64,000 nt of DNA from assembly GCA_964584165.1 (NCBI GenBank), contig CAZOYW010000006.1, positions 36,022 through 100,021 of the forward strand, in the 5' to 3' direction. Position 1 is the stretch's first letter, and the number at the start of each line of letters is the position of its first letter. The notes below the pieces were generated by a model. It searched no databases and was not told where the DNA came from. It saw only the letters and a list, made by a program, of their open reading frames with translations. The position numbers and the translations under genes were made by a program. Below, one piece after another: positions 7,029 to 60,996 of this stretch. Source of the stretch: an uncultured bacterium (GTDB taxonomy: Bacteria; Auribacterota; Erginobacteria; Erginobacterales; CAZKCI01).

Positions 7029-8165
7029 ATGATGTACAGCCCCTTGCGCTTCCTGCCCCGGATCCTGCGGAAGGGGCGAGCGCCATTGCATCTCACCTAT
7101 TTCATCACCTCCCGCTGCAACTCCCGCTGCGGCTTCTGCTTCTACCGGAAAGAGGACCAAGCACCGGGGGTCGAGCTCGGCGCCGGCGAGGCGGAGCGGA
7201 TCGCCCGCGCCTATCCGGGGAACCTCCTCTGGCTCCTCCTCTCCGGCGGGGAGCCCTTCCTCCACCCGGAGATCTCCGCGATCTGCCGGGCCTTTTACCT
7301 CCACACCCGGCCTACCTTCATCGTCATCCCCACCAACTGCCTCCAGCCACGGGTGATCGAAGCAACGGTGGACCGGATCGCCCGGGAGTGTCCGCGCTCG
7401 CAGGTGGTGATCAAGGCCTCGCTCGACGGCTGGGGAGCAGACCATGACCGCCTCCGTGGCGTGGAAGGGAACTTCGAACTGTTTCGGGAGACCGTGGAAC
7501 GGGTCGGGGCGCTAAAGGTCGGGCGGCGGAACCTCTCCCTGGGCGTCAACACGGTCATCCTTCCCCAAAACCTAGATCTCCTCTCCGACCTGCGCCGGGA
7601 GGTCAGGAAATTGCCGCGCGTGGACTACCACAATTTCTCACTGGTAAGGGGCTCTGCGGCAACGGAGGAGTTGAAGGAGATCGATCCGGAGAGCTACCGG
7701 CGCCTGGGCGGGGATCTGGAAGCCGAGGCGCGGAGGGGAGAAGGCGGCAAGGGGAGCTTTTTCGGGGCCCAGCTGAAGGCCGCCCAGGATATCCGGCAGC
7801 GGGAGCTGGTGTACCGGGTGCTGGCGACGGGGAAGCGGCAGATCCCCTGTTACGCCGGCCGCCTGAACCTGGTCCTGAACGAAACGGGCGACATCTATCC
7901 CTGCGAGATGCTCCCCTGGAAGCTCGGCAACGCCAGGGAGGAAGGCTACGACCTCGGCAAAATCCTCTCCGGCCCCCGGACAGCCGAGTGCCTGAGAGCG
8001 ATCGCGGAGGGGAACGCGGTCTGCGACCGCTGCACCAACGAGTGCTACTTCATCACCAACATACTGTTCAACCCGCGCCAGGCCGCCGCCGCCCTGGGCC
8101 TCGCCGCCCGGATCCTCATCGGCGGAGCGGCGCGCGGAGCAAGGCCGCGGACTCGGCAGAGTTGA
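7029..8165 (+). CDS. Radical SAM/SPASM-domain enzyme, anSME-like (378 aa)
   Basis: CNSRCGFCFY CxxxCxxC cluster near the N-terminus; C-terminal Cys-rich SPASM region (GDIYPCEML...CDRCTNECYF). Confidence 0.85.
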   Translation: MMYSPLRFLPRILRKGRAPLHLTYFITSRCNSRCGFCFYRKEDQAPGVELGAGEAERIARAYPGNLLWLLLSGGEPFLHPEISAICRAFYLHTRPTFIVIPTNCLQPRVIEATVDRIARECPRSQVVIKASLDGWGADHDRLRGVEGNFELFRETVERVGALKVGRRNLSLGVNTVILPQNLDLLSDLRREVRKLPRVDYHNFSLVRGSAATEELKEIDPESYRRLGGDLEAEARRGEGGKGSFFGAQLKAAQDIRQRELVYRVLATGKRQIPCYAGRLNLVLNETGDIYPCEMLPWKLGNAREEGYDLGKILSGPRTAECLRAIAEGNAVCDRCTNECYFITNILFNPRQAAAALGLAARILIGGAARGARPRTRQS

Positions 8166-8230
8166 AATCGGGGGGCAGTAAGGCTATATTGTTGAAGTTC
8201 GCAGTGGCGGAGACGCGCCGGACAGCTCCC

Positions 8231-10144
8231 ATGAAATCCAGGCCGAGGATCCGCTCCGAGTGCTTGCTCGCTTTCAGTCTCCTCGCCGCCCTCCTCCCCG
8301 GCTTCGCCTGCCGCCCGAAAGCTCCGCCAGCCGACCGGCCCAATATCTTCATCGCCTTGCTGGACGGGGCGCGGGCCGATCATTTCTCCTCGTACGGTTA
8401 CCCGCTTCCCACCACCCCCCGGATCGACGAGATCGCCCGGAGGGGCGTCCTCTTCCTTGCGGCCTTCGCCCCCGACACCGTGACCCGAACCTCCCTGCCC
8501 CGCATCCTTTCGTCCCGCTATTTCAGCAAGGACATGTTCGGAGTCGACGGGCACCGCTGGGGGATCTGGCGGGAGGACCCCACCACCATCTTCCAGGATT
8601 TCGACCGCGAGGAGATCTCGCTTCCCGAGGTCCTCTCCGCCCAGGGCTACCGAACGATGCTGATCACCAATCACAAGGCGATCACGCCGATGGAGTTCGG
8701 ACGGCTCTTCGACGAGGTCATCGTCGTTCCTTATCCGGAGAACCGGCCCCCGGACGAGGAAACGGCCGCCCGGGCGCTCGCCTGGATCGCGGAAAACCGG
8801 GACCGGCCGTTTTTCGTCCTCTACCACGTCATGTCTCCGCATCATCCCTATCCGGCCAAGGCGGAGGACTCCGAGTTCACGGGCGGGGAGGATCCGGCGC
8901 GGGTCAAATGGGTGAAGACCGAGGCGATCGAGTCCCTGAGCGAGCTTTCCGACGGCTGGACCGCGGACGACCGGCGCATCCTGCGCGGGCTCTACGACGG
9001 GAACCTCCGGCATACCGACAACTGGGTGGGGAAGATTTTCGATCGGCTGGGCGAATGGGGCCTGAAAGACCGGACCATCTTCGTCATCACCGCGGACCAC
9101 GGCATGAACCTCGGCGAGCACCGCCGCATCCACCTGGGCGGCGACGCGTTCCAGTCGATCGCCCACGTCCCCTTGATCATGGCCTGGCCATCGCGCCTTC
9201 CCTCCGGCGTCCGCGTCTCCGGGCTGGTGGAGCTGATCGACCTCATGCCCACCCTCCTGGAACTGGCTGGCCGCGATCTCCCTCGGGGGAAAACGATGGA
9301 CGGCGGCAGCCTCGCGCCTTTCATCCGCAATCCCGACCAGGGGAAGGAGGCGGTCTTCTCGGGAAGGGGGATACGGACGCCGCGCTGGCTCTATTTCCCC
9401 GCGGGGGACGAAGAAGACGAGAGCGAGCTCCTTTTCGATCTCCAAGCCGATCCGGACGAGACCGCCGATCTGGCCGAACGCGACCCGCGGACGGCCGCGA
9501 CCCTGGCCGAGCGCCGGCGGCTTTCCCTCGAACCCTTCCGTAGACGCTTCGAGTCCGCCCGCCGGAAGACCCCCCCCGACTACGCCTTTTACCTCCTCCC
9601 CGAGATGTTCTCCATCACCCCGGAGGGATCTTACGCCGTCTCGGACAAGTGGCGCCGGACCAGGACCGTGCTCGAGAAAGAGGCGCCGACCAAGCCCTGG
9701 CTCCTGCACCGGGAGATGATCCACGGCGGCCTCTTCCGGATCCCTAAAAACGGGGCGGCCACTCCCCTGCGGATGACCGTCGCCGTCCCCAGCGGCGACT
9801 ATCGCGTTTCCCTCCTCCTGGATACTCCGGAGAACCCGCCGGACAATCCCGGGGCGATCGGCCTGCGCTATCGCTTCGATCCTTCCGGAGACTATCTCCT
9901 CCCCGCCGGGATCGAGCCTTTCGGAAGGGGGGAACGCCCCTACTTCTACCTCGACCTGGGCGAAACCTCCGTCCGCGACGATCGTTTCCGGGTCGAGATC
10001 GATTTCGCCCCCCCCGGCGACGAGCCCTACATCATCCGGCACGTCAAGTTCGTCCCCGCCGGGGCGGCGGAAAGCGGCGGCCAGAACGCGGCGCGGGAGG
10101 CGGAAGAGCGGAAGCAGGCGCTGAAGAAGCTCGGCTACGATTGA
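8231..10144 (+). CDS. Secreted/lipoprotein sulfatase-fold enzyme (alkaline-phosphatase superfamily) with degenerate FGly motif
   Basis: Signal peptide MKSRPRIRSECLLAFSLLAALLPGFAC; NIFIALLDGARADH metal-site motif; TTPRIDEIARRG; DHGMNLGEH; the CxPxR position reads T-R-T-S-L. Start taken at the internal ATG (the ORF 7988-10144 is an upstream extension). Confidence 0.8.
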   Translation: MKSRPRIRSECLLAFSLLAALLPGFACRPKAPPADRPNIFIALLDGARADHFSSYGYPLPTTPRIDEIARRGVLFLAAFAPDTVTRTSLPRILSSRYFSKDMFGVDGHRWGIWREDPTTIFQDFDREEISLPEVLSAQGYRTMLITNHKAITPMEFGRLFDEVIVVPYPENRPPDEETAARALAWIAENRDRPFFVLYHVMSPHHPYPAKAEDSEFTGGEDPARVKWVKTEAIESLSELSDGWTADDRRILRGLYDGNLRHTDNWVGKIFDRLGEWGLKDRTIFVITADHGMNLGEHRRIHLGGDAFQSIAHVPLIMAWPSRLPSGVRVSGLVELIDLMPTLLELAGRDLPRGKTMDGGSLAPFIRNPDQGKEAVFSGRGIRTPRWLYFPAGDEEDESELLFDLQADPDETADLAERDPRTAATLAERRRLSLEPFRRRFESARRKTPPDYAFYLLPEMFSITPEGSYAVSDKWRRTRTVLEKEAPTKPWLLHREMIHGGLFRIPKNGAATPLRMTVAVPSGDYRVSLLLDTPENPPDNPGAIGLRYRFDPSGDYLLPAGIEPFGRGERPYFYLDLGETSVRDDRFRVEIDFAPPGDEPYIIRHVKFVPAGAAESGGQNAAREAEERKQALKKLGYD

Positions 10145-10187: not shown

Positions 10188-13100
10188 CTACTTGTCGTAT
10201 CCCAACGCCTTCAGTTGCTTGAGCAAATGGAGGGACACCGGGGTGGGGGAGGGCGCCGCCGCGGCCCGCGGGACGTCGGAAATGATCCAATCCAAGTACA
10301 TCTTCTTCTCGCCCCTGATCTCCCGGGCCCTTTTCCGCAACCGGTCCGCCGCCTCCGGGCGGGCCGAGACGAGATCGGCCGCCTCGTCCGGGTCCGCCGC
10401 GAGATCGAAAAGGTGCTCCTGCAGCCTCACGTGGCGGGGATCCCACTCCCGGCAGTAGGAGAAGCCTCCCTCCTCCAGGCGGATCCGGCTCAGGTCGATG
10501 GAATAGCTGACCAGGGTCGGCCGGTAGGAGCCCCGGCCGGCGAGCAGGGGAAGAAAGGACACCCCCTGACGGCGGGGAAGAGCGGGCAGGCCCGCCCAGT
10601 CGCAGATTGTGGGGATCAGGTCGATCAGGCGGACGGTTTCGGCGATCTCGCGGCCGGCGAAAAGTCCCCCGGGAAACTTGACGATCAGGGGGACGCGGAG
10701 GTGCTCGATGAAGAGGCGCCCGTGGCAGCGGCTCTGGTGCTCGTAGAACTCCTGCCCGTGGTCGGCCAAGACCGCGATCAGAGCCTTGTCGTATATACCT
10801 TCCTTGGCCAGGAGCTCCCGCAGTCGGCGGAAGAGGTCGTCGGCGACGGCCACGCCGCCATCGTAGAGCTGGAGCGCGTGATCCCGGTGGTCGGGTCGGG
10901 AGAGGTCGATCCCCTTCCAGAAGGACTTGACTATATCCGCCCCGTTCTTGCCTAAGCCCTCCAGGCCGGTCGGAAGGCCGGGGACGGGGCGGCGAAGAAA
11001 GCGCCGGCGGATTTCCGGGGGACCGAAGACATAGGGGTCGTGGCAGTAGTTGTGATGGATAAAGAGGAAGAGTGGCTTTCCGCGGGCGCGGCTCTCCCCG
11101 ATCGCGGCCGCGATGTCGGCGGGCAAGGCCCCGGGGACGAGGCGGAGGTGGTCGAACGAATCCCGGAAAAGATCGAAGCCGCGGGCGAAGCCGAGTGAGC
11201 CGTCGAGCTCGGCCCCGCCGTGCACCGCCGCCGTGAAATATCCGTTGGCCCGGAGAAGCTCGGCATAGGTGGCGATCTTCGCGGGAAGGCTGTTGGCCCG
11301 CTGGCGGATGCCGACGCCCAGGTTTCGCACCAGGTTGACATCGGGCATCAGGGCGGTCAGGAGCGACATGTAGGAGGGAGCGGAGGTCGGACACTGGCTG
11401 AGCACGCGCCGGAAGAGCACGCCCTCTCGGGCGAGCTCGTCGAGGGCGGGGCTGGTCGGGCTCGGATTCCCATAGCAGGAGAGGCGGTCGGGGCGCAGGG
11501 CGTCGATCGAGAGCAGTACGATGTCGGGAAAGCCCGCGGGGGGAGACGAGCCGGCGACCGGGACCGGGGGGGCGGGCGAGGGCGGGCGGACCGGCGCGCC
11601 GTTTTCGGAACAGTGCTTCCAACCGATGTAGGCCCGGACGTCGGAGGGGTCGAGGTCGACCGCCGCGCGGAAGGAGCCGGCGGCGCGGGTCACGTCGCCG
11701 CGGGCGAGATAAATCTCCCCCTCTTCGAGGATCGCCTCCAGGCCGTCGGGTTCCCGCCGGCGGGCTTCCGCCGCCAATCCCGCGGCCCGGTCGAGATTCC
11801 CCCGTTCCCGGAAAAACCGGGAAAGGTGAACAAGGTCGGCGGCGCCGGGCGCGCCGAGCGACAGGAACCGCTCGAAATACCGCTCCGCCTCCTGGAAATG
11901 TTCCATCCCCTCCTCGGAGTAGCCCAAACCGAGCAGGGCGGAGGGGTTCTCGGGATCGGCGGCGAGCACGCGGGAGAACAGCTCGGACGCCGTCTGAAAA
12001 TCGTCGACCTCATAGCAGGCATAGGCCGATTGGATCATCCAGTCGGCTTCGCCGGGGCGGCGGGCCGGACCCGGGAGAACAGCGCCGGCCCGCGGGACGA
12101 GCCGGGCTTCCGGGGGCACCTCTCGGAAGGCGAAATAGCCGTCCCGCCAATCCGTGAAATAGCTCCGGTCCGCCAGCATCTCCAGACCCGCTCCGAAGTA
12201 GTGGTTGAAGATCGCCCGAAAGGTGTTGGCCGGCGTGATCCCGGGGTAGAGGGCCTTCTCTCCGCCGTCGGGCAGATGGTAGGCGTTCAGGATCGAGAGC
12301 CCCTCCCGCACGTTCGACTTCTCGAACTCGCAGAAGACATACTCCGAACGGGGCCCGTGATCGGCCTGCAGGATGATGATGGGCGGCCGGGAAGACCGCC
12401 GGAGAAGCCCGTCCACCATCTCGAGCACCTTCCGGTTCATGAACTTCAGCTGGCGGACGTAGCGCTCCCGGTACTCCTCCCGGCTGATCCCCAGGCGGTC
12501 GAGGAATCCCGCGGCGTCCCCCGACAGGAAATAATCGGCCAGCTGCACCGGCTCGCCGTTCTCGCCGAAGACAAACGGCGGGTGCGGGGCGCCGAGGTGG
12601 GCGAAGACGAAGAGCGGCCCGGGCAGGAGCGCGGTCTCGGGGATCTCCTCCAGGGCGAAAAGGATCCTCTGCCGGTGGCGCCGATATTGGGCGCTCTCCC
12701 CCCCCAGCAAGGCGAGCAGGGGCGGCAGGGGGGTGGCGTTGATCAGTTCGTTCTGGAACTCGGACGGCGACCAGCCGCAGGAGAAGTAGAGGTCGGCGGC
12801 CCGGAGCTCGGTCTTGTCGTAGCCGCTGGAAAAGGCCGCGAAGCGGTAGCCCAGACCCCGGAGCGAGGCCGCCGTCCGGTTGTTGAGGAGCAGAGACCGG
12901 GGATAGCCGATCTTGCTCGCCCGGAACCTTTTTTCATCCAGATACGACCAGTTGAGCGAGGAGGCGAGGCTGATCAGGCTCAGGTCGTAGTTCGACCGGG
13001 CCCGCTCGGCGACATAGAAACCCCGGGACTTCAGGGCGTCCAGGAACTCGGAGTTGTCGAACCCGTAGACCTCCCGGAGGATGTCGCCGCGGGCGTAGGC

Positions 13101-15224: not shown

Positions 15225-15248
15225 GGGTTCAGGGTTCAGGGTTCAGGG
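15225..15248. repeat. Tandem heptamer (GGGTTCA)x3 spanning the stop codon of the YfhO gene
   Basis: gggttcagggttcagggttcagggg read directly; it encodes the C-terminal ...LNPEP* on the - strand. Confidence 0.5.
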
Positions 15249-18767: not shown

Positions 18768-18777
18768 CGGGGATTAA

Positions 18778-18830
18778 GTGATCAGTAATCAGTAATCAGT
18801 GATCAGTGATCAGTGATCAGTGATCAGTAA
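18778..18830. repeat. Perfect tandem heptamer array (GTGATCA/GTAATCA)x7 in the 123-bp gap upstream of the SPASM gene
   Basis: gtgatcagtaatcagtaatcagtgatcagtgatcagtgatcagtgatcagtaa; followed by gaacc-rich direct repeats (aactgcgaaccgcgaacccgtgaaccgttgaaccctg). Confidence 0.7.
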
Positions 18831-40566: not shown

Positions 40567-40589
40567 GGATCTTCCGCCTCTCCTTCCGG

Positions 40590-48598: not shown

Positions 48599-48710
48599 CC
48601 TGTGGGAGCGACATTCCTGTCGCGATCCGAGCCAGCCGAGCCTGTGGGAGCGCCGTCCCCGGCGCGATCCGAGTTGGCCCGGATCGGGGCAAGAATGCCC
48701 CTCCCACACA
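48599..48710. repeat. REP-like palindromic element, second locus (one and a half units)
   Basis: cctgtgggagcgacattcctgtcgcgatcc... cctgtgggagcgccgtccccggcgcgatccgagttggcccggatcggggcaagaatgcccctcccaca; about 85% identical to 17613-17682. Confidence 0.6.
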
Positions 48711-48756
48711 ATCCGGCGTCTATCGCCAATTTACCCATACATGAGGAAGAGAACCG

Positions 48757-53442: not shown

Positions 53443-55586
53443 CTCGCGGACCGGCCGTGACGGGGGGACATGATCGCGAAGACCTCCCGGGGGGACGTCC
53501 CGGCGGATGGGGGGAGGCCGAGAATCCGGACCGAGTTCCAAGGACGCTCATAGAAGTCCCAGACCCAGAGCGCGTCCTCCCACCGCTCCATCCGCAGGGG
53601 CGCCTCCCAGGAGATCCCGTCCGACGAGACCTCGACCACGGGCGTCTCCGCGAGGGCGGTCGGGAAGACCACGATCAGGTCGCTGAAGGGCCCCCCGGAG
53701 CGGTCGAGGAGGATTTCGAGTCCGCCCCCGCTCCTCTCCCGCGCCCCCTTGACCGCACCCGGGACTCCGTAGCGGGAGCGAAGCTCCTCCCAGAGGCGCG
53801 GCCCGAGGACGGGATGGCGCCGGAGCTGGAGGAGGAGGTCCGGGACCTCCCCCTCCGGGATCGGCTTGACCGCGGCGGCGGCCAGCCCCATCCGGAGCGC
53901 TTCCTCATCCTGGCCGTCCCTCAGGTAGAGGCGGGCGCGCATCTGCAGGTCGTCGACGCAGTTGGACCAGTCGAAGGGGAGCGTCCGCCAGCAGCCGGCG
54001 TAGCGCCCCGCGCGCTCCCAGCGTTCGACCGCGGCGGCGGTCCGGCGGAGAGCGGCGGCGACCGCGGCCAGATTGGCGGCGGCCAGGGCGGCGAGGGCAA
54101 ACGCCGCCAGGCGGAAGCGGGCGGGGCGGGAGAGGCGGCGGCGGAGCGCCGCGACCGCGGCGGCGAGGGGCACCCCGGGGAAGAGGACAAGGAGACTCCA
54201 CCAGTAGTCCGAACGGGGGACCTGGAGAAGGGGAGAAAGGAGAGCGCCGGCGCGGGGGAGCACCCGGAGGGCGGCGCGGACCGCCGCGATCGGGTTCTCC
54301 GGCGAAGCGATCTCCCGGGCGGCGGACGGGAGAAGCGGGGCCGTCCGGTACCACCAGGGGAGATACCAGAGAGAAAGCTTGACGAAGGTGACGTAGGCGA
54401 GGAAGAGCGCGGCCGCCGCCCACGCCGCGCCCGCCCAGCGCCGGCGGAAGAGAAAGGTCAGCCCCAGCACGAAAGCCGGCGCCAGGGAAAGGCTGTAGCG
54501 GGAGCTGAGATAGAGCTGCGCCTCGATATGGCCCCGCCGGAAGAGGCTGATGGCGAAGGCCAGCGCGATCACCCCCCAGAGCGGAAGAACGACCGGGCGA
54601 AAGCGGCGGGGCGCGAGAAACAAACCGGCGAGGCCGAGCAGCGGGACGATGCTCAGGGTCAGGAAATCGGGCTGGCGGAGGAGAAGACGAGCGACCTGGG
54701 AGAGCGACTCCCGGGCCACCGCCGCCCCGTAGAGGTCCGGGTTCCAGGACCCGAACCAAGCCCGGAAGACGAGGGCCTGGGGCAGAACCGCCAGGGCGAA
54801 GCCGGCCGCTCCCTGGATCCACGCCGCCAGGAGGGAGAGGCCCCGGAGCCGCCCCGACCTCCACCAGCCGATCCCGGCCGTGGCCAGGAAAATCCCCCAG
54901 AAGGCCGACTGGATCCGGACCAGGGCGGCCATCCCCAGGAGGAGGCCGAGGAGGAGACCCCAGAAGCGGGGAAAGGAGGGCGAGAAATGGAGGGAGAGGA
55001 CGAGGTGGAGGAGGAGACCGATCAGGAGAAGCGCGATCAGCTCCGATCCCCCCTGTTTGAAGAAGAGGAGCCACCACCACTCGGTGCTGAAGAGGACCGC
55101 CGCCAGCGCCATGAGCGCCGGCGCGCAACCGGAGCCGAGACGGCGGCAGAGGCGGTAGAGGACGAGGAGGGCGGCGAACCCGCAGAAGACCGCGGTGGCG
55201 TTGTACCAGAAGAGGCGGAAGCGGTCGACCGGCCCGGAGGCGGGGGAGGCGGACCAGTCTCCTTCGACCGGAAGGCGCGCCAGTCTCGCCGCCGCCCGGC
55301 CGGCGAAGAGGAAGGGGCAGGAGAGGAGGGCGCTCCCCACCGTGTGCGGGACGGCGAGATGGCCGGTGACGGTCAGGTGCCGCTCGGTTTGGGGGATCTT
55401 GGCCTCCTGGTCGTAAAGGAAGAGGTCGCCGTCCCGGCAGAGGCTGGCGGCCATCAGGAAATAGGAGGAATCGACGAAGACGGCCTTTCCCCTCGTCCAG
55501 AGGGCGGTCGCCAGAAGAAGGGCCGCGCCGCCGAGCGCTACTCGGCGGACAAGGCGGCCGGACGGGATCGGTGCTTCCGCAGCCAT
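53439..55586 (-). CDS. GT-C-like polytopic membrane protein, paralog family A (C-terminal ...REVFAIMSPRHGRSAR)
   Basis: VFVDSSYFLMAASLCRDGDLFLYDQEAKIPQTERHLTVTGHLAVP. Start ATG 55586 lies 43 nt after the rSAM stop, with a GAGAGG RBS. The upstream 500 aa of the 1217-aa ORF is an alternate frame of the rSAM gene. Confidence 0.7.
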   Translation of the reverse strand: MAAEAPIPSGRLVRRVALGGAALLLATALWTRGKAVFVDSSYFLMAASLCRDGDLFLYDQEAKIPQTERHLTVTGHLAVPHTVGSALLSCPFLFAGRAAARLARLPVEGDWSASPASGPVDRFRLFWYNATAVFCGFAALLVLYRLCRRLGSGCAPALMALAAVLFSTEWWWLLFFKQGGSELIALLLIGLLLHLVLSLHFSPSFPRFWGLLLGLLLGMAALVRIQSAFWGIFLATAGIGWWRSGRLRGLSLLAAWIQGAAGFALAVLPQALVFRAWFGSWNPDLYGAAVARESLSQVARLLLRQPDFLTLSIVPLLGLAGLFLAPRRFRPVVLPLWGVIALAFAISLFRRGHIEAQLYLSSRYSLSLAPAFVLGLTFLFRRRWAGAAWAAAALFLAYVTFVKLSLWYLPWWYRTAPLLPSAAREIASPENPIAAVRAALRVLPRAGALLSPLLQVPRSDYWWSLLVLFPGVPLAAAVAALRRRLSRPARFRLAAFALAALAAANLAAVAAALRRTAAAVERWERAGRYAGCWRTLPFDWSNCVDDLQMRARLYLRDGQDEEALRMGLAAAAVKPIPEGEVPDLLLQLRRHPVLGPRLWEELRSRYGVPGAVKGARERSGGGLEILLDRSGGPFSDLIVVFPTALAETPVVEVSSDGISWEAPLRMERWEDALWVWDFYERPWNSVRILGLPPSAGTSPREVFAIMSPRHGRSAR

Positions 55587-57052
55587 CGCCTCTCGATCCG
55601 GGAGGAGAGCGCCGGCCAGAACTCCGGGCTGATCAGAGCGTAGCCGAAGGCGCTGAGTATGGAATTGGACCACTGGACCCCCCGGAAGAGCCGGGAGATT
55701 ATCCGGGGGAGGAAGATCATCGGGTTGGCGAGGAAGGTCATCCAGACCAGGCGGCCGCCGAAGACGAGGTAGGTCTTCAGGATCATCCGGGGGACGAAGG
55801 AGGGCGGCACGCCGGGGTTCTTCGCCCCCCGGCTGTAATGGAACGAGTACATCGTCTGGGCGTCGGCGGACTCGTTCATCTCCGCCGCCCGGGTGGCGAG
55901 ATCGGTGCCCGGCAGCGGCGTATAGGAGAAGAAAAGCGGCACGTGCAATTCCATGCGCCGGGCCAGATTGTAGGTGGCCCGGATCGTCCGCTTGGTGTCC
56001 CCGGGAATCCCGAAGATGGCGTAGGTCTTGACGATGATGCCGCGCCGGTTGCAGCTGTCGACGATTTCGGGGAAGACGCTCCCCGAGCTCCCCTTTTTCC
56101 GGAGCACCGTTTCCCGGATCGCGTCGTCGCCCGACTCCATCCCGATCCGCACCTGCACGCAGCCGCTCTCTTTCATCAGGTCGAGCTTCTCCTCGGAGGC
56201 GTTGTGCCGGTCCGCCTTGAGAAAGGCCGAGTAGGGGAGCGCGCGGTCGAGGCCGAGGGAGCGGTACTCGTCCGCCCAGGCCTTGAGCCAGTCGAGATCG
56301 AAGCTGAAGACGGAGTCGTAGAGGTGGGCCGCCTTCATCCCCCGGTGCCGGTAGCGGTCGTAGAGGACCTTGATCTCGCGGACGTAGCGGCGGGGGTCGC
56401 GCAGGCGGAAGCGCCGGCCCGGGCAGACGCCCTTGAGCATCGACTCGGCGCAGAAGGCGCAGTCGTAGGGGCAGCCCCGGCTGCCGATGACGTAAAGGCG
56501 CTGGAGGAAGTAGAGGTACTTGTCGATGTCGGCGAAGAGGTCGTAGTCGGGGACGGGGAGGGAATCGAGGTCGGGGTTGTGCGGCCGGGGCTCGTTCCGG
56601 ACGATCTCCCCGCCCCGGCGGTACCAGATCCCCCTGACCCCGGAGAGATCCCGCTTCCCCTCGAGCGCTTGGAGCCACTCCGCCAGGGCCTCCTCGCCGT
56701 CGCCGATGCAGAGGGCGTCGAACTCCGGGACCCGCATCGTCTCCTCGGGGGCCATCATCGCCTGGAAACCCCCGACGATCATCGGGACCGGCCGGATCCG
56801 CTTGATCCGCCGGGCGATTTCCCGGGCGTAGTCGAAGTAGAGGGAGACGACCGAGATCCCGACCGCGTCGGGTTGGAAGCGGCGGATTTCGCCCTCGATG
56901 TAGGACCGCCAGTCGCGGCGGCGGAAGGTGGGGTCGATGATCCGCACCTGGTGCCCCGTGCGCTCCTTGAGGTAGGTGGCGAGGTAGGCCACCCCCATGT
57001 CCAGGCTGGGGACGGTGCCGTCGAGGTTGGGGTAGACGATGGCGACTTTCAT
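55538..57052 (-). CDS. B12-binding (class B) radical SAM enzyme
   Basis: MKVAIVYPNLDG...; SRGCPYDCAFCAES. An alternative TTG start at 57094 is possible. Confidence 0.85.
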   Translation of the reverse strand: MKVAIVYPNLDGTVPSLDMGVAYLATYLKERTGHQVRIIDPTFRRRDWRSYIEGEIRRFQPDAVGISVVSLYFDYAREIARRIKRIRPVPMIVGGFQAMMAPEETMRVPEFDALCIGDGEEALAEWLQALEGKRDLSGVRGIWYRRGGEIVRNEPRPHNPDLDSLPVPDYDLFADIDKYLYFLQRLYVIGSRGCPYDCAFCAESMLKGVCPGRRFRLRDPRRYVREIKVLYDRYRHRGMKAAHLYDSVFSFDLDWLKAWADEYRSLGLDRALPYSAFLKADRHNASEEKLDLMKESGCVQVRIGMESGDDAIRETVLRKKGSSGSVFPEIVDSCNRRGIIVKTYAIFGIPGDTKRTIRATYNLARRMELHVPLFFSYTPLPGTDLATRAAEMNESADAQTMYSFHYSRGAKNPGVPPSFVPRMILKTYLVFGGRLVWMTFLANPMIFLPRIISRLFRGVQWSNSILSAFGYALISPEFWPALSSRIERRWLRKHRSRPAALSAE

Positions 57053-57128
57053 GGCGGAGGCGGCCGGGCGCGGCTGCCGGGGATTGTAGCACAACCCTCC
57101 GCCGCCTGCCGAGGGGATGCTGCCCGCT

Positions 57129-58517
57129 TTAGGTCCGGGGGGAGAAGAGGGAGCGGACCAGGTCCGGCCGGCGCAGGAGCGCCCGCCAGGCCATCGGGTC
57201 CTTGAGCTTCCTCGCCCAGTAGGACGGGCGGCGGTAGAAGGCGGCGAAGGCGCGGCGGAGCCAGGATTCCAGGTCGGGGACGAGGTAGGGGAGGCGGTCG
57301 GAACGGAGGCCCAGCGTGTATTGGCGCCAGTAGTCCGGGTCGATCAGCCCCTCCCGGACCGCGTCCTCGTGGAGGAGGGTGCCGGGGAGCGGGACCGCGG
57401 GGTAGAACATCACGTAGTCGGGTGCGAGCGAGCGGGCGAGGCGGATCGTCGCCGCCATCGTCTCGGGCGTCTCCCCGGCGTAGCCCAGGATGAAGTAGGC
57501 GCCGGTCTTCAGGCCGGCCGCCCGGGCCCCGGCGAAGGCGGCCTTTGCCTGGGCGATTGTGATCCCCTTCTCCATCCGGTCGAGGATCGCCTGGGAGCCC
57601 GACTCCACTCCGAACTTGAGCTGCCGGCAGCCCGACTCCCTCATCAGCTTCATCAAGTCGGCCGAAACGATGTCCACGCGGGTCGCGCCCTGCCAGCGGA
57701 GGCGCAGCCCCCGGCGCCGGATCGAGCGGCAGAGGGACTCGATCTGGGCGGCGTTGACGGTGAGCATGTCGTTGCAGAAGATGATCTCCCTCACCCCCTC
57801 GTCGACGGCGAGGCGCTCCATCTCCTCCGCGACCAGCTCGGGCGAGCGGTGCCTCACCCGCCGCTGCTCCGGCGGGCGGTGGCAGAAGCCGCAGCGGAAA
57901 GGGCAGCCCCGGGTGGAGATCATCGTCGCCATCGGGGAACGGGCGTCGGCCCGGCCGTACCGGCGGGGGGGGATGAGGTCGCGGGCGGGGAGCGGGATCC
58001 CGTCCAGGTCCTCGACCACGGCGGAGGGGTTGCAGACCGTCTCCCCCCCCCTCCTCCAGACCAGTCCGGGGACCCCGGCTAAGTCGCCCCCTCCCCGCAG
58101 GGCGTCGAGGAGGACGAGCAGCGCCTCCTCGCCCTCCCCGGCGACGGCGAAGTCGAAACAGCGGTGGGAGAGGGTCTCGCGGGGGAGGAGCGAGACGTGG
58201 GGGCCGCCAACCACCACCCGGGGGGCGCATTCCCGCGCCTGCGAAGCGGCCTCCACCGCCCCCTGGATCTCCGGCGTGGTGGCGGTGATCCCCACGAGGT
58301 CGGGGCGCCAGCGCTCGAGGGCGCGCCGGAGGTCGTCCGCCCCCCACCCTTCCCGGACGCAGTCGAAGAGGGCGGCCTCGTGGCCGGTGGCCCGCAGCGC
58401 CCCTCCCAGGTAGGCGAGACCGAGCGGCGGCCAGACGCCCATCCGGTCGACCACCGAGGGGAGCTCCCGGGTGTTGACCATCGCCCGGTCGTGATAGCGG
58501 ACGAGCGCCACCCTCAT
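57129..58517 (-). CDS. B12-binding (class B) radical SAM enzyme (463 aa)
   Basis: MRVALVRYHDRAMVN...; TRGCPFRCGFCH. ATG 58517 forms an ATGA overlap with the upstream stop; the 851-aa ORF extension is junk. Confidence 0.85.
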   Translation of the reverse strand: MRVALVRYHDRAMVNTRELPSVVDRMGVWPPLGLAYLGGALRATGHEAALFDCVREGWGADDLRRALERWRPDLVGITATTPEIQGAVEAASQARECAPRVVVGGPHVSLLPRETLSHRCFDFAVAGEGEEALLVLLDALRGGGDLAGVPGLVWRRGGETVCNPSAVVEDLDGIPLPARDLIPPRRYGRADARSPMATMISTRGCPFRCGFCHRPPEQRRVRHRSPELVAEEMERLAVDEGVREIIFCNDMLTVNAAQIESLCRSIRRRGLRLRWQGATRVDIVSADLMKLMRESGCRQLKFGVESGSQAILDRMEKGITIAQAKAAFAGARAAGLKTGAYFILGYAGETPETMAATIRLARSLAPDYVMFYPAVPLPGTLLHEDAVREGLIDPDYWRQYTLGLRSDRLPYLVPDLESWLRRAFAAFYRRPSYWARKLKDPMAWRALLRRPDLVRSLFSPRT

Positions 58518-59944
58518 CGCGTCCCCTCCCCCGTCTCGAAGATCTCCCGGAGCACCCGCCCGGCCGAGCGGGCGGGCGGGCGGAGGCCGAGGATGGCCGC
58601 CGCCGTCGCCCCGATGTCCATGATCGTCCCGGAGGCTTCGACCCGGGCGCCCCGCCGGATCATCGGCCCGCGGGCGATGAAGGGGACGATCCGCTCGGAG
58701 GGGGCGAGGAGGTAGGAGTGGTCGATCCCGGCGATCCCGTGGTCGGAGCAGACGATCACCGCCGTCTCCGCCTCCAGCCCCTCTCGGCGGAGCCAGCCGA
58801 AGAAGCGGCCGAGGCGCTCGTCGGTCCGCTCCAGCGACTCCCGGTAGAGCGCGGAAGCGGAGCCATAGGCGTGGCCGACGAAATCCGCCTCGCTGATGTC
58901 GAAGACGAAGAGCCGGACCTCGGGGCGGCCGAGCAGGTCGCGCTGGAGCTCCGCCAGCGCGAGCTCGTCGATCCGCCAGCAGGAGACGGCGGCGATCGGG
59001 ACGACCTTCACCTCCCACTCCGGCTTGGAGAAGTGGCGCACGTGCATCGATCCGTAGAGGACCGTCGGCGTGAGGTCGGGCAGCCCCTCGACCCGGATCC
59101 GCTGGCCGAGGTTGTTGTTGAGGACGCCGTGGACCCGGGGCGGCGCGCCGGTGAGGATGCTGGCGAAGGCCGGGTTGGTCAGGGCCCGGTAGACCGTCCG
59201 GAGCCCCGGGAGGATCTCCGTCCCCTCCCCCGCGAAGGACCGGAGCGACGGTCGGGCGATCCGGTCGAAGACGTCCCGCCGAACGCCGTCGATGTTGAGG
59301 ATGATCAGGCGGCGGGCGGGGGCGAGAGCGGGGAGGGCGGGGCCGGACGCCGGGTCCGAGAGGATGCGGGGGAGGAGCTTGCGCACCGCCGCCGCCCAGA
59401 GAAGGAGGAGAGGGAAGGGAGCGGCGGCCGTTAAACTCCCCCGGGCGGCGGCGAGAAGAGAGAGCGTCAGGAAGCCGGAAAAGGCGACCGACATCGAGAG
59501 GCTGACCGTGGTCGGGGCGACCGTCCAGCAGGAGTTCCAGAGCATCCGGAAGGGGACCGAGCCGTCGCGGCTGACCAGGCCGTTGGGGATGCCCATGAAG
59601 AGGAGCTGGACCGCGGCGAAGACCGCGATCTGGAGGAGGAGCGCGGCGGCGAGCGTCCCCGGCGCCAGGACGCCCATGAGCCACCAGTAAGCGGCCGCCG
59701 CCGGGACGGCCAGGGAGAGCCAGGGGTGAAAGTCGCCGATCCGGCAGATCGCGTAGACCGCCCCCGCCGCCGGGAGGGCCCAGAGGGTCGCGGCCGACCA
59801 GGGAGGGGAGAGGAGGAGGAAGACCCCGATCCCGGCGATCGCGTAGTAGGTGTCGATGCTGTTGAAGAAGTAGAGGACGCGGACCGCGACGTCCTCCACC
59901 CCGGCGAGGAGGTCGGAGAGGGCCGAGCGCAGGGAGCGGTTCAT
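58514..59944 (-). CDS. Membrane-anchored alkaline-phosphatase-superfamily enzyme, NPP/type I phosphodiesterase-like (476 aa)
   Basis: Six N-terminal TM helices; ILNIDGVRRDVF, LTGAPPRVHGV, VCSDHGI. ATG 59944 forms an ATGA overlap with the upstream stop. Confidence 0.75.
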   Translation of the reverse strand: MNRSLRSALSDLLAGVEDVAVRVLYFFNSIDTYYAIAGIGVFLLLSPPWSAATLWALPAAGAVYAICRIGDFHPWLSLAVPAAAAYWWLMGVLAPGTLAAALLLQIAVFAAVQLLFMGIPNGLVSRDGSVPFRMLWNSCWTVAPTTVSLSMSVAFSGFLTLSLLAAARGSLTAAAPFPLLLLWAAAVRKLLPRILSDPASGPALPALAPARRLIILNIDGVRRDVFDRIARPSLRSFAGEGTEILPGLRTVYRALTNPAFASILTGAPPRVHGVLNNNLGQRIRVEGLPDLTPTVLYGSMHVRHFSKPEWEVKVVPIAAVSCWRIDELALAELQRDLLGRPEVRLFVFDISEADFVGHAYGSASALYRESLERTDERLGRFFGWLRREGLEAETAVIVCSDHGIAGIDHSYLLAPSERIVPFIARGPMIRRGARVEASGTIMDIGATAAAILGLRPPARSAGRVLREIFETGEGTR

Positions 59945-60996
59945 CTTCGGTGGCGGAGGAGGTTGCCCGGCGGAAAACTCAAGCGGGTCTCGAGGTAGCA
60001 GACGTAGCAGGTGGTCCGGCAGCGGGCGCAACCGGCCAGGGAAGCGAGCGTCCGCCGGTATTCCGGAGTCGCCATGACTCCGGGCCAGTCCCGGAGCCGG
60101 AAGGGGGACCGCCAGCCCATCCCCTCGAGGCAGGGGAAGACCGTCCCGTCCGGCCAGACCTCCAGGTGATGATAGCCGAAAAGGCAGGGCCGGGAAGCGA
60201 AAACGTCCGTCCGGCCCCGGACGAGGAACTCGGCGGCGGCCCGGAGGAAACGGTCGGAGTTGATCACCCGCCGCGAGCGGGCGAGCTCCCGGAAGACCGC
60301 CTCGATCCGCGCCGGGTCCGGCGGGGGGGCGGACCGCTCCCCGGCGGCGCCGTCGAAGGCCGGGTGGGAGTTGCGCGGCTGGATCTTCATCTTCACCCCC
60401 GCCTCCCCGGCCAGGCGGAGGACGCTTAAGGCCTCCTCCGGCCGGTCGGGCATGACCACGGCGTTCAGGACCACCGCCGTCGCCGGGGCGGCGGCGCGGA
60501 GCGCCTCCACCGCCTGGAGCGCCCCGACGTGCGCGCCCGGCTTTCCCCGGATGGCGTCGTGGAACGCGGGCGAGCCGTCGATGCTGATCGAGACCTCGTC
60601 CACGCCGGCGGCCCGGAGGGAGGCCGCCCGCGAACGGTCGAGAAGGGAGCCGTTGGTCACCAGGTGCGTGTAGAGGACGCCCCCGGCGCGCGCCGCCGCG
60701 AGCGCCTCCTCGGCGTAGGGGAGGAGGAGCGGCTCGCCGCCGCTGATGCTGAAGTAGGCGCAGGAGAGGTTCCCCAGCTCCCGGGCCAACCTCAGGATCT
60801 CCTCGCGCCCGAGGGTCGGGGACCCCGGGTGCTTCCTGATCTCGCAGAAGGAGCAGGCAAAATTGCAGCGGGTGGTGATGTAGCAGCCGCAGGCCATCGG
60901 ACGGGGGCGGGAGCGCAGGTAGGACGCGTACCAGCGGGCGGTCCGAAAGAGGAGCGGAAGGGCCCGGCGGGGCTTGAGGAGGAGGGGATGCCTCAC
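59941..60996 (-). CDS. Radical SAM/SPASM-domain enzyme, anSME-like paralog (351 aa)
   Basis: CNFACSFCEIRK; SIDGSPAFHDAIRGKPGAH; C-terminal CLFGYHHLEVWPDGTVFPC...CARCRTTCYVCY. Confidence 0.85.
   Translation of the reverse strand: MRHPLLLKPRRALPLLFRTARWYASYLRSRPRPMACGCYITTRCNFACSFCEIRKHPGSPTLGREEILRLARELGNLSCAYFSISGGEPLLLPYAEEALAAARAGGVLYTHLVTNGSLLDRSRAASLRAAGVDEVSISIDGSPAFHDAIRGKPGAHVGALQAVEALRAAAPATAVVLNAVVMPDRPEEALSVLRLAGEAGVKMKIQPRNSHPAFDGAAGERSAPPPDPARIEAVFRELARSRRVINSDRFLRAAAEFLVRGRTDVFASRPCLFGYHHLEVWPDGTVFPCLEGMGWRSPFRLRDWPGVMATPEYRRTLASLAGCARCRTTCYVCYLETRLSFPPGNLLRHRR

Follow-up and report, generated by a model that had tools for sequence, protein, structure and literature searches.

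Radical SAM enzymes encoded beside glycosyltransferases in a large bacterial glycosylation locus: candidates for sugar tailoring

Introduction

What do four radical SAM enzymes do among glycosyltransferases? The question is raised by a 64-kb stretch of DNA from an uncultured bacterium (the window), in which an earlier note, made from the sequence alone, saw four paralogous enzymes resembling sulfatase maturases (anSME-like) and asked whether their substrate was a protein or a glycan. Here, profile, structure, and gene-context comparisons were used to follow up that reading.

Results

The four enzymes and their relatives

The four genes, rSAM-1 to rSAM-4, were confirmed as open reading frames of about 350 amino acids with coding-type GC3 of 0.86–0.93 (Table 1). 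Public assemblies contain called genes that match rSAM-1, -2, and -3 exactly and one, P0002, with 99% identity to rSAM-4. All four proteins match Pfam Radical_SAM, and alignment bore out the common CxxxCxxC and S-x-DG...HD..RG..G blocks noticed before, together with GGE, TNG, and five aligned C-terminal cysteines. Two copies had been credited with the anSME-like CxxxCxYCFY; the CFY ending is present, but the actual motifs are CNSRCGFCFY and CDCRCRMCFY, or CxxxCx(F/M)CFY, without tyrosine before the third cysteine. The Cys-rich SPASM tail also held in part: every protein has a cysteine-bearing C-terminal domain, but it is incomplete, with five invariant cysteines (Cx17C...Cx1-2Cx3C), rSAM-3 included, or six conserved in the rSAM-2 family (Cx6Cx10C...Cx2Cx3C), versus the 7–8 of anSME. 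The Pfam SPASM threshold was passed by rSAM-1 and rSAM-2 only, and rSAM-4 gave no Pfam SPASM match. Judging from sequence, the auxiliary-cluster domain is probably twitch-like or a partial SPASM domain, whose cluster number and ligation cannot be read at this level.

None of the four approached a curated family threshold in the NCBIfam comparison and, in keeping with the earlier note, profile scores place them in no characterized SPASM subfamily. Against two family HMMs that we built (rSAM-1 family and rSAM-2 family), rSAM-1, -2, and -3 scored 104–212 bits, the highest value being that of rSAM-3 with the rSAM-1 family, whereas rSAM-4 scored 52–54 bits, no better than its PqqE or AhbD match (67 bits). 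The claim of four paralogues thus survives for three, which by these scores form a single clade; rSAM-4 is only a distant superfamily relative. We found 828 homologues of rSAM-2, 16 of rSAM-3, and few of rSAM-4. The rarity of the rSAM-3 and rSAM-4 families leaves few independent gene contexts for them.

In an AF2 model of rSAM-2 (pLDDT 91.8), Foldseek ranked SkfB first, BlsE second (TM 0.64/0.68), and anSME eighth. BlsE was likewise second to SkfB for the rSAM-1 model. It led the structural matches of rSAM-1 when these were ranked by aligned length, and those of rSAM-2 when ranked by TM-score. Sequence identity to BlsE/BtrN-type twitch enzymes is only 16–20%.

Table 1. Radical SAM genes and neighboring genes in the window.
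Feature	Position	Strand	Remarks
PRK07208-type FAD oxidoreductase	3031-4461	+	Amine-oxidase fold, UDP-galactopyranose-mutase-like N-terminus; NF005548 496 bits (cutoff 389)
GT2 with ~3 predicted C-terminal TM segments	5975-7021	+	Pfam Glycos_transf_2 1.3e-30; stop 8 bp before rSAM-1 start
rSAM-1	7029-8165	+	378 aa; twitch-like or partial SPASM C-terminal domain; large GT2-paired family
Sulfatase-fold AP-superfamily protein, N-terminal signal or TM	8231-10144	+	Pfam Sulfatase 2.1e-44; no FGly motif
Membrane protein, TPR repeats and sulfatase-fold domain	10188-13643	-	1151 aa; Pfam; S-A-P-S-Y at FGly position
B12-binding radical SAM	13707-15188	-	Pfam B12-binding and Radical_SAM; no NCBIfam family at its cutoff
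YfhO-like polytopic protein, ~10 TM, presumed GT-C-type	15229-17517	-	Directly downstream of rSAM-2; Pfam YfhO 29.7 bits (cutoff 28.5)
rSAM-2	17715-18767	-	350 aa; SPASM-type domain (Pfam)
Soluble GT2, polyprenyl-phosphate sugar synthase type (DPMS/ArnC/AglJ-like)	18891-19652	-	Pfam; upstream of rSAM-2
B12-binding radical SAM	27948-29447	-	Pfam; start approximate (start-codon candidates)
GT2 of rSAM-3 operon	47620-48738	-	Pfam Glycos_transf_2 9e-18; start uncertain, 48711-48738
RGP-like (UDP-arabinopyranose mutase) protein	48757-49866	-	Directly downstream of rSAM-3; Pfam PF03214 57.6 bits (cutoff 23.8)
rSAM-3	50110-51153	-	347 aa; Pfam Radical_SAM; nearest rSAM-1 family, rare branch
Polytopic membrane protein	51211-53541	-	Upstream of rSAM-3; 776 aa without a Pfam match
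B12-binding radical SAM	55538-57094	-	Pfam; 72% identical homologue in locus L010
B12-binding radical SAM	57129-58517	-	Pfam; ATG overlaps NPP stop (ATGA); GGAGG upstream of start
Membrane-anchored NPP/phosphodiesterase-type AP-superfamily protein	58514-59944	-	Pfam Phosphodiest 5.7e-26; ATG (start 59944) overlaps rSAM-4 stop
rSAM-4	59941-60996	-	351 aa; Pfam Radical_SAM 2.7e-25; rare family
GT9 (heptosyltransferase-family)	60993-62147	-	Pfam Glyco_transf_9 1.7e-27; stop overlaps rSAM-4 start (GTGA)
B12-binding radical SAM	62202-63641	-	Pfam

Gene neighborhoods in the window and in other genomes

The set sits inside a very large glycosylation locus. The neighbors that had been claimed do lie beside the enzymes: a sulfatase-fold gene after rSAM-1, the YfhO-like gene after rSAM-2, NPP after rSAM-4, and a polytopic membrane protein beside rSAM-3. 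Two things had been missed: rSAM-1, -2, and -4 each have a glycosyltransferase gene immediately upstream, and the five B12-binding radical SAM genes of Table 1 bring the window total to nine radical SAM genes, a density that we would put far above chance expectation for 64 kb. A dTDP-sugar epimerase-like gene and a split transketolase are also present. The GT2 upstream of rSAM-2 scored 147 bits with NCBIfam AglJ (dolichyl-P hexose transferase), matched PpgS as well, and aligned over its full length to the DPMS structure 5MLZ and to ArnC; the GT2 of the rSAM-3 operon is its paralogue.

We counted the context of rSAM-1 homologues in 80 species-level loci from bacteria and archaea. In 74, a homologue of the rSAM-1 partner GT2 immediately preceded the radical SAM gene on its own strand, and five of the six remaining loci were contig ends; a sulfatase homologue was nearby in 2 of the 80. 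The conserved partner is a glycosyltransferase and not an AP-superfamily protein. B12-binding radical SAM genes (40/80), homologues of the PRK07208-type oxidoreductase (19/80, e.g., L004 and L008), and PMT_2 GT-C proteins (13 and 10 loci) recur nearby, and a corrinoid protein, RACo, and a URO-D/MtaA-like protein do so in actinomycete-type loci (Actinomycetes/Thermoleophilia). Many minimal loci consist of GT2 and radical SAM alone. Among the best 150 family representatives, 12 exceed 600 amino acids, and at least 11 are fusions: nine GT2-rSAM, one rSAM-GT2, and one joining the radical SAM protein to a WecG/TagA/CpsF transferase. For the GT2 domain of nine fusion proteins, the best match in the window was the rSAM-1 partner GT2. 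We found no paper on this pairing in the literature searched.

The other enzymes have glycosyltransferase-rich contexts as well. Loci of the rSAM-2 family hold PMT_2, DPMS-like GT2, GT9, and sugar-nucleotide genes, and the order rSAM-2-like then YfhO-like is repeated in L013, L014, and L095. Homologues of rSAM-3 were seen in L095 and L096, and the RGP-like and GT2 pair is kept in L010. GT9 followed by a radical SAM gene occurs in L010, L014, and L093.

Discussion

We consider it about an even bet that the four proteins are cytoplasmic radical SAM tailoring partners of the adjacently encoded glycosyltransferase, acting probably on carrier-lipid-linked sugars. The adjacent enzyme would build a membrane-bound glycosyl intermediate, most likely a polyprenyl-(pyro)phosphate-linked sugar, the candidates being the membrane GT2 for rSAM-1, the DPMS/ArnC-type synthase for rSAM-2, the RGP-like protein with GT2 for rSAM-3, and GT9 for rSAM-4. 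The radical SAM enzyme would then cleave SAM to a 5'-deoxyadenosyl radical and abstract hydrogen from an unactivated sugar carbon, with an auxiliary cluster handling the electron, to give an oxidized, epimerized, decarboxylated, or ring-rearranged sugar. The B12-type enzymes may add C-methyl groups, and the many YfhO/PMT_2-type polytopic transferases could pass the altered sugars to an acceptor in the envelope. The sulfatase-fold and NPP proteins would belong to the same pathway, acting outside the cytoplasm as transferases or hydrolases of phospho- or sulfo-esters, and would not be substrates. We infer the substrate, the reaction type, and the step order; linkage to GT2, the fusions, the recurrent B12-type and PMT_2 genes, and the gene content of rSAM-2-family loci support this reading, as does the full-length DPMS/ArnC alignment of the rSAM-2 partner. 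Sugar tailoring is further supported by the 4-nt overlaps that join GT9, rSAM-4, NPP, and a B12-binding radical SAM gene, an order kept in L010, and by the high rank of BlsE, a twitch enzyme whose substrate is a sugar acid. Several points count against this reading. GT-C genes are near only about a third of GT2-rSAM pairs, the PDB sequence matches of the rSAM-1 partner are generic (GT2, PglI, PcManGT, and ArnC), and contexts for rSAM-3 and rSAM-4 are few. The coupling of rSAM-4 to NPP is as tight as that to GT9, and in L096 a sulfatase-like gene whose product has a canonical C-V-P-S-R motif lies upstream of an rSAM-3 homologue, at a distance of ~570 bp.

The earlier premise of peptides or proteins as the normal SPASM substrates was too narrow, as sugar- and lipid-acting twitch and SPASM enzymes are known. 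Structures of BtrN, BlsE, and DesII are solved, and Cds, HpnJ, and Hbs are sugar- or lipid-acting radical SAM enzymes (PMC13459092; bioRxiv 10.1101/2023.10.20.563219). Remodeling after glycosyl transfer finds support in Cds and in hopanoid cyclitol-ether synthesis by HpnI (a GT2) and HpnJ, where a lipid is first glycosylated by the glycosyltransferase and its new sugar is then remodeled by a radical SAM enzyme (PMC13459092). The recurring set of GT2, B12-type enzyme, and second radical SAM enzyme resembles these systems; however, no hopanoid or GDGT genes occur here, the B12 enzymes of the window score 78–153 bits against an HpnJ cutoff of 577, and Cds is likened by description, not sequence. 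BlsE (cytosylglucuronate decarboxylase) and BtrN are twitch enzymes acting on sugars or cyclitols, but their substrates are soluble intermediates of antibiotics encoded by natural-product clusters of actinomycetes, without a membrane GT2 pairing or fusion in envelope-glycan loci, and the BlsE model TIGR04466 (cutoff 400) gave 24–40 bits for rSAM-1, -3, and -4 and fell outside the 25 best for rSAM-2. A DPMS/ArnC-like GT2 beside YfhO-like and PMT_2 proteins also recalls three-component polyprenyl-phosphate systems (a GtrB/CsbB or ArnC GT2, a flippase, and a YfhO/ArnT/PMT GT-C), although no flippase was identified at the locus. In the Arn pathway, ArnD modifies the lipid-linked sugar before GT-C transfer; here the intervening enzyme would be a radical SAM protein, for which, to our knowledge, such systems offer no described example.

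The substrate could equally be a nucleotide sugar before transfer, or a lipid moiety. It strikes us as unlikely, if still worth weighing, that the enzymes tailor soluble NDP-sugars or similar precursors, much as BlsE, DesII, and BtrN work on soluble sugars, and supply the neighboring glycosyltransferase with a non-standard donor. BlsE, whose substrate is a nucleoside-linked sugar acid, is one of the two best structural neighbors of both models; sugar-nucleotide genes abound in some rSAM-2-family loci (e.g., L092, with epimerases, a DegT aminotransferase, and acetyltransferases); the window has its epimerase-like gene, split transketolase, RGP-like protein, and UGM-like flavoprotein; and fusions would suit donor channeling. 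However, the partner conserved throughout is a GT2 anchored in the membrane, not a nucleotidyltransferase or dehydratase, one fusion partner is of the WecG/TagA class, which works on lipid-PP-linked acceptors, and no sugar-nucleotide genes were recognized in many minimal loci. None of these objections is decisive. It is more doubtful that the enzymes alter the hydrocarbon part of a lipid (the carrier or a GT2-made membrane glycolipid) by cross-linking, cyclization, or adenosylation, with B12 enzymes methylating the chain, as the precedents of Tes, Hbs, and HpnH would allow. Scores fall far under the cutoffs (Tes 450; HpnH 225, scored at 26–40 bits), lipid-synthesis genes are not linked, neither an Hbs-type lipid-binding extension nor any other precedes the radical SAM core, and the fusion partners are glycosyltransferases only.

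The earlier idea, that anSME-like maturases modify an active-site residue of adjacent sulfatase-fold or NPP proteins, now seems very improbable, and for rSAM-1, -2, and -3 it is largely refuted by scores, motifs, linkage, and fusions to glycosyltransferases. TIGR03942 was outside the 25 best families for all four, and an rSAM-3 homologue reached 35.4 bits over the core only (cutoff 349.45); the five or six C-terminal cysteines and the rarity of nearby sulfatase genes are further differences from anSME. The motif C/S-x-P-x-R is absent from every AP-superfamily protein of the window; the three sulfatase-fold ones have T-R-T-S-L, T-R-P-A-M, and S-A-P-S-Y at the FGly-x-P-x-R position. In HMMER alignment, T-R-T-S-L of protein 8231-10144 stands opposite FGly-G-P-S-R of sulfatase 4UPI; S-A-P-S-Y of protein 10188-13643 aligns with S-T-P-A-R of 7OZ8. 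Two of the three proteins thus have threonine at the nucleophile position, as do orthologues of the third in L013 (T-A-P-S-H) and L014 (T-T-P-S-H), and threonine cannot give formylglycine. Least credible of all is maturation of a small ribosomal peptide, RiPP- or mycofactocin-like, which GT2 would then glycosylate: MftF is the best NCBIfam match of the partner GT2 (85.9 bits, cutoff 280), the enzymes match MftC (38–57 bits, cutoff 265), PapB, SkfB, and similar families, and SkfB is the top structural match, but these scores are far under the cutoffs, there is no RRE domain since the radical SAM motif begins at residue 25–44, no PqqD/MftB-like gene was found, the flanking gaps (≤243 bp) hold only Arg/Ser-rich spurious frames, and clustering around the 80 homologous loci gave no conserved small frame, only out-of-frame shadows of neighboring genes.

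The evidence thus favors a glycan over a protein as the substrate, and we return to tailoring of sugars in concert with the adjacent glycosyltransferase. At least one of the four enzymes belongs to a large uncharacterized family that is adjacent or fused to glycosyltransferases in hundreds of uncultured bacteria and archaea. Consequently, modification of sugars, here those of a cell-envelope glycan, is the most likely role of these enzymes.

Four radical SAM proteins with a partial auxiliary domain

The four radical SAM genes of the earlier note, rSAM-1 to rSAM-4, lie where it had placed them (see the table), and their products share 26-34% pairwise identity. All four exceed the gathering threshold of PF04055 (Radical_SAM), and their alignment has CxxxCxxC, GGE, TNG and an S-x-DG...HD..RG..G block in common. 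With the models below, these features identify the partial TIM-barrel core of the radical SAM superfamily in them. The anSME-like CxxxCxYCFY motif attributed to two of them actually reads CNSRCGFCFY and CDCRCRMCFY. A full SPASM domain has seven to eight conserved cysteines and two auxiliary [4Fe-4S] clusters. The tail that had been called SPASM does fit the Cx9-15Gx4C ... Cx2C... pattern of a C-terminal auxiliary-cluster domain in all four proteins, but it has five to six conserved cysteines and not the full set. Five align across the four proteins (C274-x12-G-x4-C292 ... C332-x2-C335-x3-C339 in rSAM-1 numbering); family alignments have five invariant C-terminal cysteines for rSAM-1 and rSAM-3 and six for rSAM-2. 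Pfam SPASM (PF13186) exceeds its gathering threshold in rSAM-1 (28 bits) and rSAM-2 (27 bits) and has no match in rSAM-3 or rSAM-4. AlphaFold2 modelled rSAM-1 and rSAM-2 with confidence (pLDDT 90.3 and 91.8), and the known structures closest to these models all belong to SPASM or twitch enzymes. For the rSAM-2 model, Foldseek placed SkfB first, BlsE second with the best TM-score (0.64/0.68) and anSME eighth, while BlsE is among the two closest neighbours of both models. Since the matches extend to SkfB, BlsE and anSME alike, the fold is a generic SPASM/twitch one. These results show radical SAM enzymes with one predicted twitch-like, partial-SPASM auxiliary domain.

Against each other's family HMMs, rSAM-1, rSAM-2 and rSAM-3 score 104-212 bits, compared with at most 70 bits for any curated family, and these profile scores show the three to be a predicted single clade. 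The idea of four paralogues holds for them but not for rSAM-4, which reaches 52-54 bits with the rSAM-1 and rSAM-2 families, not above what it scores with PqqE or AhbD. NCBIfam matches of all four are weak (23-70 bits against curated cutoffs of 170-850 bits), and by this comparison the proteins belong to no named family.

Linkage to glycosyltransferases

The rSAM-1 family is widespread, with 404 relatives among 185,579 species genomes and 1,958 representatives (50% identity, E <= 1e-30) among 1.84 billion proteins. Its bacterial members come from Nitrospirota, Thermoleophilia and other Actinomycetes, Desulfobacterota, Alpha-, Beta- and Gammaproteobacteria, Rokubacteria and PVC-group bacteria, and its archaeal members from Hydrothermarchaeota and Methanobacteriota. 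The nearest GTDB representatives are "PVC group bacterium" MAGs (59-61% identity). Context was counted by searching the 80 best rSAM-1-family loci, almost all from metagenome-assembled genomes, with each of the window proteins (tblastn). A homologue of the GT2 gene at 5975-7021 lies directly upstream of the radical SAM gene, on the same strand, in 74 of the 80 loci; in five of the other six the contig ends there. Stop and start codons of the pair frequently overlap. Half of the loci (40/80) have a B12-radical SAM gene, 19/80 have a PRK07208-type flavoprotein, and neighbour clustering found PMT_2-type GT-C proteins in 13 + 10 loci. In ten actinomycete-type loci (Actinomycetes/Thermoleophilia) a PMT_2 gene lies immediately downstream; these loci also have a corrinoid protein, RACo and a URO-D/MtaA-like methyltransferase, next to which the B12-radical SAM homologues are found.

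Gene fusion brings the two activities closer still. Among the best 150 rSAM-1-family representatives, 12 proteins exceed 600 aa (P0327, P0333, P0339, P0358, P0379, P0395, P0414, P0417, P0420, P0319, P0399 and P0383). In nine, an N-terminal GT2 domain matches the GT2 at 5975-7021 better than any other window protein; a tenth carries its GT2 after the radical SAM part, and an eleventh is fused to a WecG/TagA/CpsF glycosyltransferase; P0383 has a C-terminal extension of ~350 aa. Fusions of this kind are strong evidence that glycosyltransferase and radical SAM enzyme work on the same pathway intermediate. The radical SAM enzymes are thus coupled genetically, and sometimes physically, to glycosyltransferases, in loci that also hold B12-radical SAM enzymes and GT-C-type transferases.

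The other three proteins have comparable surroundings. The rSAM-2 family is broad (828 matches), and one homologue is from Candidatus Euphemobacter (Auribacterota). In one of its loci (L093) a GT9 gene precedes the radical SAM gene, and another, from an Altiarchaeota MAG (L094), has PMT_2, carbamoyltransferase and GT2 genes. The window's own order, with a YfhO-like gene after the radical SAM gene, recurs in L013, L014 and L095. Dolichol-phosphate mannose synthase and ArnC align with the whole length of the window's rSAM-2 partner GT2, which also scores 147 bits with AglJ and is consequently a GT2 of the polyprenyl-phosphate sugar synthase type. The rSAM-3 protein represents a rare branch (16 matches). 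One homologous locus (L095) is a similar island with B12-radical SAM enzymes, 850-aa membrane proteins, an ankyrin protein, another radical SAM enzyme and a GT9; in another (L096), a GT2 fragment and epimerases follow the rSAM-3 homologue. A metagenome scan with the rare rSAM-4 returned the same organism and three weak relatives only. In the window, genes for GT9, rSAM-4, NPP and a B12-radical SAM enzyme are chained by 4-nt stop/start overlaps (GTGA, ATGA, ATGA), an order also found in L010. This arrangement implies that two radical SAM enzymes are probably coupled in translation to a glycosyltransferase and a membrane phosphodiesterase.

The surrounding island

Since the G+C content of the window is ~69%, mechanical ORF lists are crowded with overlapping artefacts. 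Genes were therefore called by third-position G+C (GC3), and the calls are consistent with the public ones for the same DNA (ENA ERZ15185029 NODE_2, 349 kb, metagenome-assembled). Near-identical copies of that DNA occur in other assemblies, and the exact window proteins also occur in ENA, NCBI and Logan assemblies. From ~10.2 kb to the window end, the minus strand holds nearly all genes, with short or overlapping junctions. The inventory, based on Pfam and NCBIfam scans and a hydrophobicity count for transmembrane segments, comprises five GT2 genes and one GT9 gene, three sulfatase-fold proteins and one NPP-type phosphodiesterase of the AP superfamily, two SAM methyltransferases, two YfhO-like proteins, one PMT_2 protein with C-terminal ankyrin repeats, and about eleven more polytopic membrane proteins in several paralogue groups.

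Features of the window, with positions in nucleotides
Feature	Position	Strand	Remark
rSAM-1	7029-8165	+	378 aa
rSAM-2	17715-18767	-	350 aa
rSAM-3	50110-51153	-	347 aa
rSAM-4	59941-60996	-	351 aa
B12-binding radical SAM	13707-15188	-	
B12-binding radical SAM	27948-29447	-	
B12-binding radical SAM	55538-57094	-	
B12-binding radical SAM	57129-58517	-	
B12-binding radical SAM	62202-63641	-	
GT9, rSAM-4, NPP, B12-radical SAM chain	58514-62147	-	
GT2	5975-7021		
GT2	18891-19652		rSAM-2 partner
GT2	29452-30438	-	
Sulfatase-fold protein	8231-10144		T-R-T-S-L opposite FGly-G-P-S-R of sulfatase 4UPI
Sulfatase-fold protein	10188-13643		S-A-P-S-Y opposite S-T-P-A-R of 7OZ8
Sulfatase-fold protein	23963-25381		T-R-P-A-M opposite FGly-S-P-T-R of 7STT
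Split transketolase	26129-27067 and 27068-28027	-	
dTDP-4-dehydrorhamnose-3,5-epimerase-like cupin	25389-25967	-	
RGP/UDP-arabinopyranose-mutase-like protein	48757-49866		PF03214, 57.6 bits
PRK07208-type flavoprotein	3031-4461		N-terminus UDP-galactopyranose-mutase-like; NF005548, 496 bits, cutoff 389
Polytopic protein	179-2734		
Polytopic protein	4464-5978		
Polytopic protein	15229-17517		
Polytopic protein	19887-22373		paralogue of YfhO-like proteins
Polytopic protein	22470-23966		
Polytopic protein	30468-33215		
Polytopic protein	33002-35284		
Polytopic protein	36035-38494		paralogue of YfhO-like proteins
Polytopic protein	38467-41019		
Polytopic protein	41366-43504		
Polytopic protein	43548-45389		
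Polytopic protein	45386-48394		
Polytopic protein	51211-53541		
Polytopic protein	53439-55586		
AGTGATC repeat	18777-18828		x7.4, 95% matches, GATC in each unit
AGTGATC repeat	44381-44412		x4.6, opposite orientation
GGGTTCA repeat	15225-15248		x3.4

The roughly 14 polytopic proteins are of 500-1000 aa with 5-12 predicted transmembrane segments, and only three (two YfhO, one PMT_2) have a Pfam match. The others may be divergent GT-C-type transferases or polymerases, a label that rests on size, predicted transmembrane count (6-12), context and, for some, paralogy to the YfhO-like proteins. Two candidate pyranose/furanose mutase-like proteins are also present, the flavoprotein and the RGP-like protein. 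Together with the polytopic transferases, this pair recalls what might be an arabinogalactan-type assembly from lipid-linked furanose donors. A minus-strand row at 25389-29447, with the split transketolase, the cupin, a B12-radical SAM gene and a GT2 gene, looks like a pathway for a branched or otherwise unusual sugar.

Nine radical SAM genes lie in the window: rSAM-1 to rSAM-4 and five B12-binding ones, which the earlier note did not mention. The five B12 proteins are 24-36% identical pairwise. Their best NCBIfam matches are BchE, HpnJ, ApyD and a ladderane-type lipid radical SAM enzyme, none at cutoff, with HpnJ (TIGR03471) scores of 78-153 bits against a cutoff of 577.6. An Rfam scan of the window for cobalamin and SAM riboswitches gave zero matches. 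Three short tandem arrays were also observed. An AGTGATC heptamer array fills part of the 123-bp gap between rSAM-2 and its GT2 partner. The same unit recurs within the long ORF at 43548-45389, whose GC3 coding signal breaks exactly at the repeat; the ORF could be two genes, or the repeat could be a slippage site. The GGGTTCA array sits at a junction of a B12-radical SAM gene and a YfhO-like gene.

Proposed substrate and alternatives

We consider it highly probable that rSAM-1, rSAM-2 and rSAM-3 are coupled to glycosyl transfer and not to the maturation of a protein or peptide; for rSAM-4, we favour the same conclusion with less assurance. Our confidence is evenly balanced on a more specific model, in which the substrate is a lipid-linked sugar. 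The glycosyl intermediate made by the glycosyltransferase would be bound to the membrane, most likely through polyprenyl-(pyro)phosphate, and the radical SAM enzyme would abstract hydrogen from a sugar carbon, so that the sugar is oxidised, epimerised, decarboxylated or rearranged. The B12 enzymes would C-methylate the sugar, YfhO/PMT_2-type transferases would deliver the product outside the membrane, and Thr/Ser-type AP-superfamily proteins would there add or remove phospho- or sulfo-ester groups.

Action on nucleotide sugars is an unlikely alternative. In one rSAM-2-family locus (L092), PMT_2, GT2, radical SAM, epimerase and second radical SAM genes are followed by sugar-nucleotide genes. 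Action on the lipid chain seems less probable still. The rSAM-1 and rSAM-2 proteins differ from HpnH (TIGR03470), scoring 26-40 bits against a cutoff of 225.

The earlier note had proposed an anSME-like role beside AP-superfamily genes. In the profile comparison, TIGR03942 (anSME; cutoff 349.45 bits) fell outside the best 25 NCBIfam families for all four proteins, where the lowest scores listed were 23.5-40 bits. An rSAM-3 homologue (P0243) reached 35.4 bits over model positions 5-213, the core only, and the PDB profile match to anSME (E 1e-8) was likewise confined to the core. The candidate partners were also examined. Threonine cannot be converted to formylglycine, and Ser/Thr nucleophiles are used by phosphoryl-transfer members of the AP superfamily (NPP, LtaS, EptA). 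HMMER alignments to solved sulfatases (see the table) place Thr or Ser at the nucleophile position of the sulfatase-fold proteins, the formylglycine position reads T-A-P-S-H and T-T-P-S-H in the orthologues of the protein at 10188-13643 from the two closest genomes, and the pattern C/S/T-x-P/A-x-R has no match at this site in the window's sulfatase-fold proteins. These neighbours are, as far as their residues predict, not formylglycine enzymes. A sulfatase-fold homologue lies within +/-8 kb in only 2/80 rSAM-1-family loci, both from the closest PVC-group relatives. The sole observation for an anSME-like role concerns the rSAM-3 branch: in L096 (GCA_038125745.1, JAYPEJ010000002.1, 7521-11071), a 635-aa sulfatase-like gene with the canonical Cys-type formylglycine motif C-V-P-S-R lies ~570 bp upstream of an rSAM-3 homologue (P0250, 40% identity) and adjoins a TauD-family dioxygenase. 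Given the NCBIfam scores, the cysteine count, the missing formylglycine motifs and the lack of conserved sulfatase linkage, we reject an anSME identity, and anSME-like maturation of neighbouring proteins is very improbable. This corrects a plausible mis-annotation, as a radical SAM gene beside a sulfatase-fold gene need not encode an anSME. The oddity that prompted the proposal is real, and broader than first described.

Peptide maturation fares worst. The gaps beside the four genes, where a search for precursor-peptide ORFs had been suggested, are at most 243 bp and hold only Arg/Ser-rich spurious ORFs, and small ORFs clustered around 80 homologous loci are only out-of-frame (antisense or spurious) shadows of neighbouring genes. 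The radical SAM motif starts at residue 25-44, which leaves no N-terminal domain and no RRE, and no window protein scanned has a PqqD-type Pfam match. A mycofactocin identity was rejected because the radical SAM proteins score 38-57 bits with MftC (TIGR03962; cutoff 265) and the GT2 at 5975-7021 scores 85.9 bits with MftF (TIGR03965; cutoff 280). With neither an adjacent precursor gene nor an RRE/PqqD-like domain fused or nearby, RiPP or mycofactocin-like maturation is scarcely credible.

Relation to known systems and significance

Sugar tailoring by radical SAM enzymes has been described chiefly in antibiotic pathways and for two lipid head groups. By sequence family, our proteins are not BlsE: rSAM-1, rSAM-3 and rSAM-4 score 24-40 bits with TIGR04466 (cutoff 400), and for rSAM-2 this model is outside the best 25. 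By analogy, the linkage to glycosyltransferases, the fusions and the place of BlsE among the two best structural neighbours would group them, indirectly, with the carbohydrate-acting BtrN, BlsE and DesII. Calditol synthase, and HpnI with HpnJ, are precedents in which a radical SAM enzyme remodels a lipid-linked sugar after a glycosyltransferase has acted (PMC13459092); for a SPASM and B12 pair that acts on lipids, the precedent is Hbs with Hgm (bioRxiv 10.1101/2023.10.20.563219). Neither the enzyme class nor radical tailoring of sugars as such is new. Our search of the open-access literature found no description of this clade, of its near-universal GT2 pairing and fusion, or of its envelope-glycan placement across phyla.

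Tentatively, we propose a widespread module of two genes, sometimes one, in which a membrane GT2 and a twitch-like radical SAM enzyme would carry out radical chemistry on carrier-lipid-linked sugars before delivery to the envelope; in many cases a cobalamin radical SAM enzyme and a GT-C protein accompany them. The more than 400 species concerned are bacteria and archaea, most of them uncultured. Epimerisation, oxidation, C-methylation and carbocycle formation are conceivable reactions. In the window organism, probably a PVC-group member close to Auribacterota, the module would be expanded to four twitch-type and five B12-type radical SAM enzymes with ~14 polytopic transferases, which suggests an envelope polymer of several radical-modified sugars. 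Adjacency and gene fusion lock the clade to glycosyltransferases of what would be primary envelope-glycan machinery, and the GT2-radical SAM fusions are a compact, directly testable system. If the module reading is true, it would add a new class to glycan tailoring, one that lies outside natural-product pathways. Should the substrate prove to be a polyprenyl-phosphate-linked sugar, the three-component scheme of GT2, flippase and GT-C glycosylation would gain a new step, and unknown envelope sugars would be predicted in Nitrospirota, Thermoleophilia, sulfur-oxidising Proteobacteria, PVC-group bacteria and Hydrothermarchaeota.
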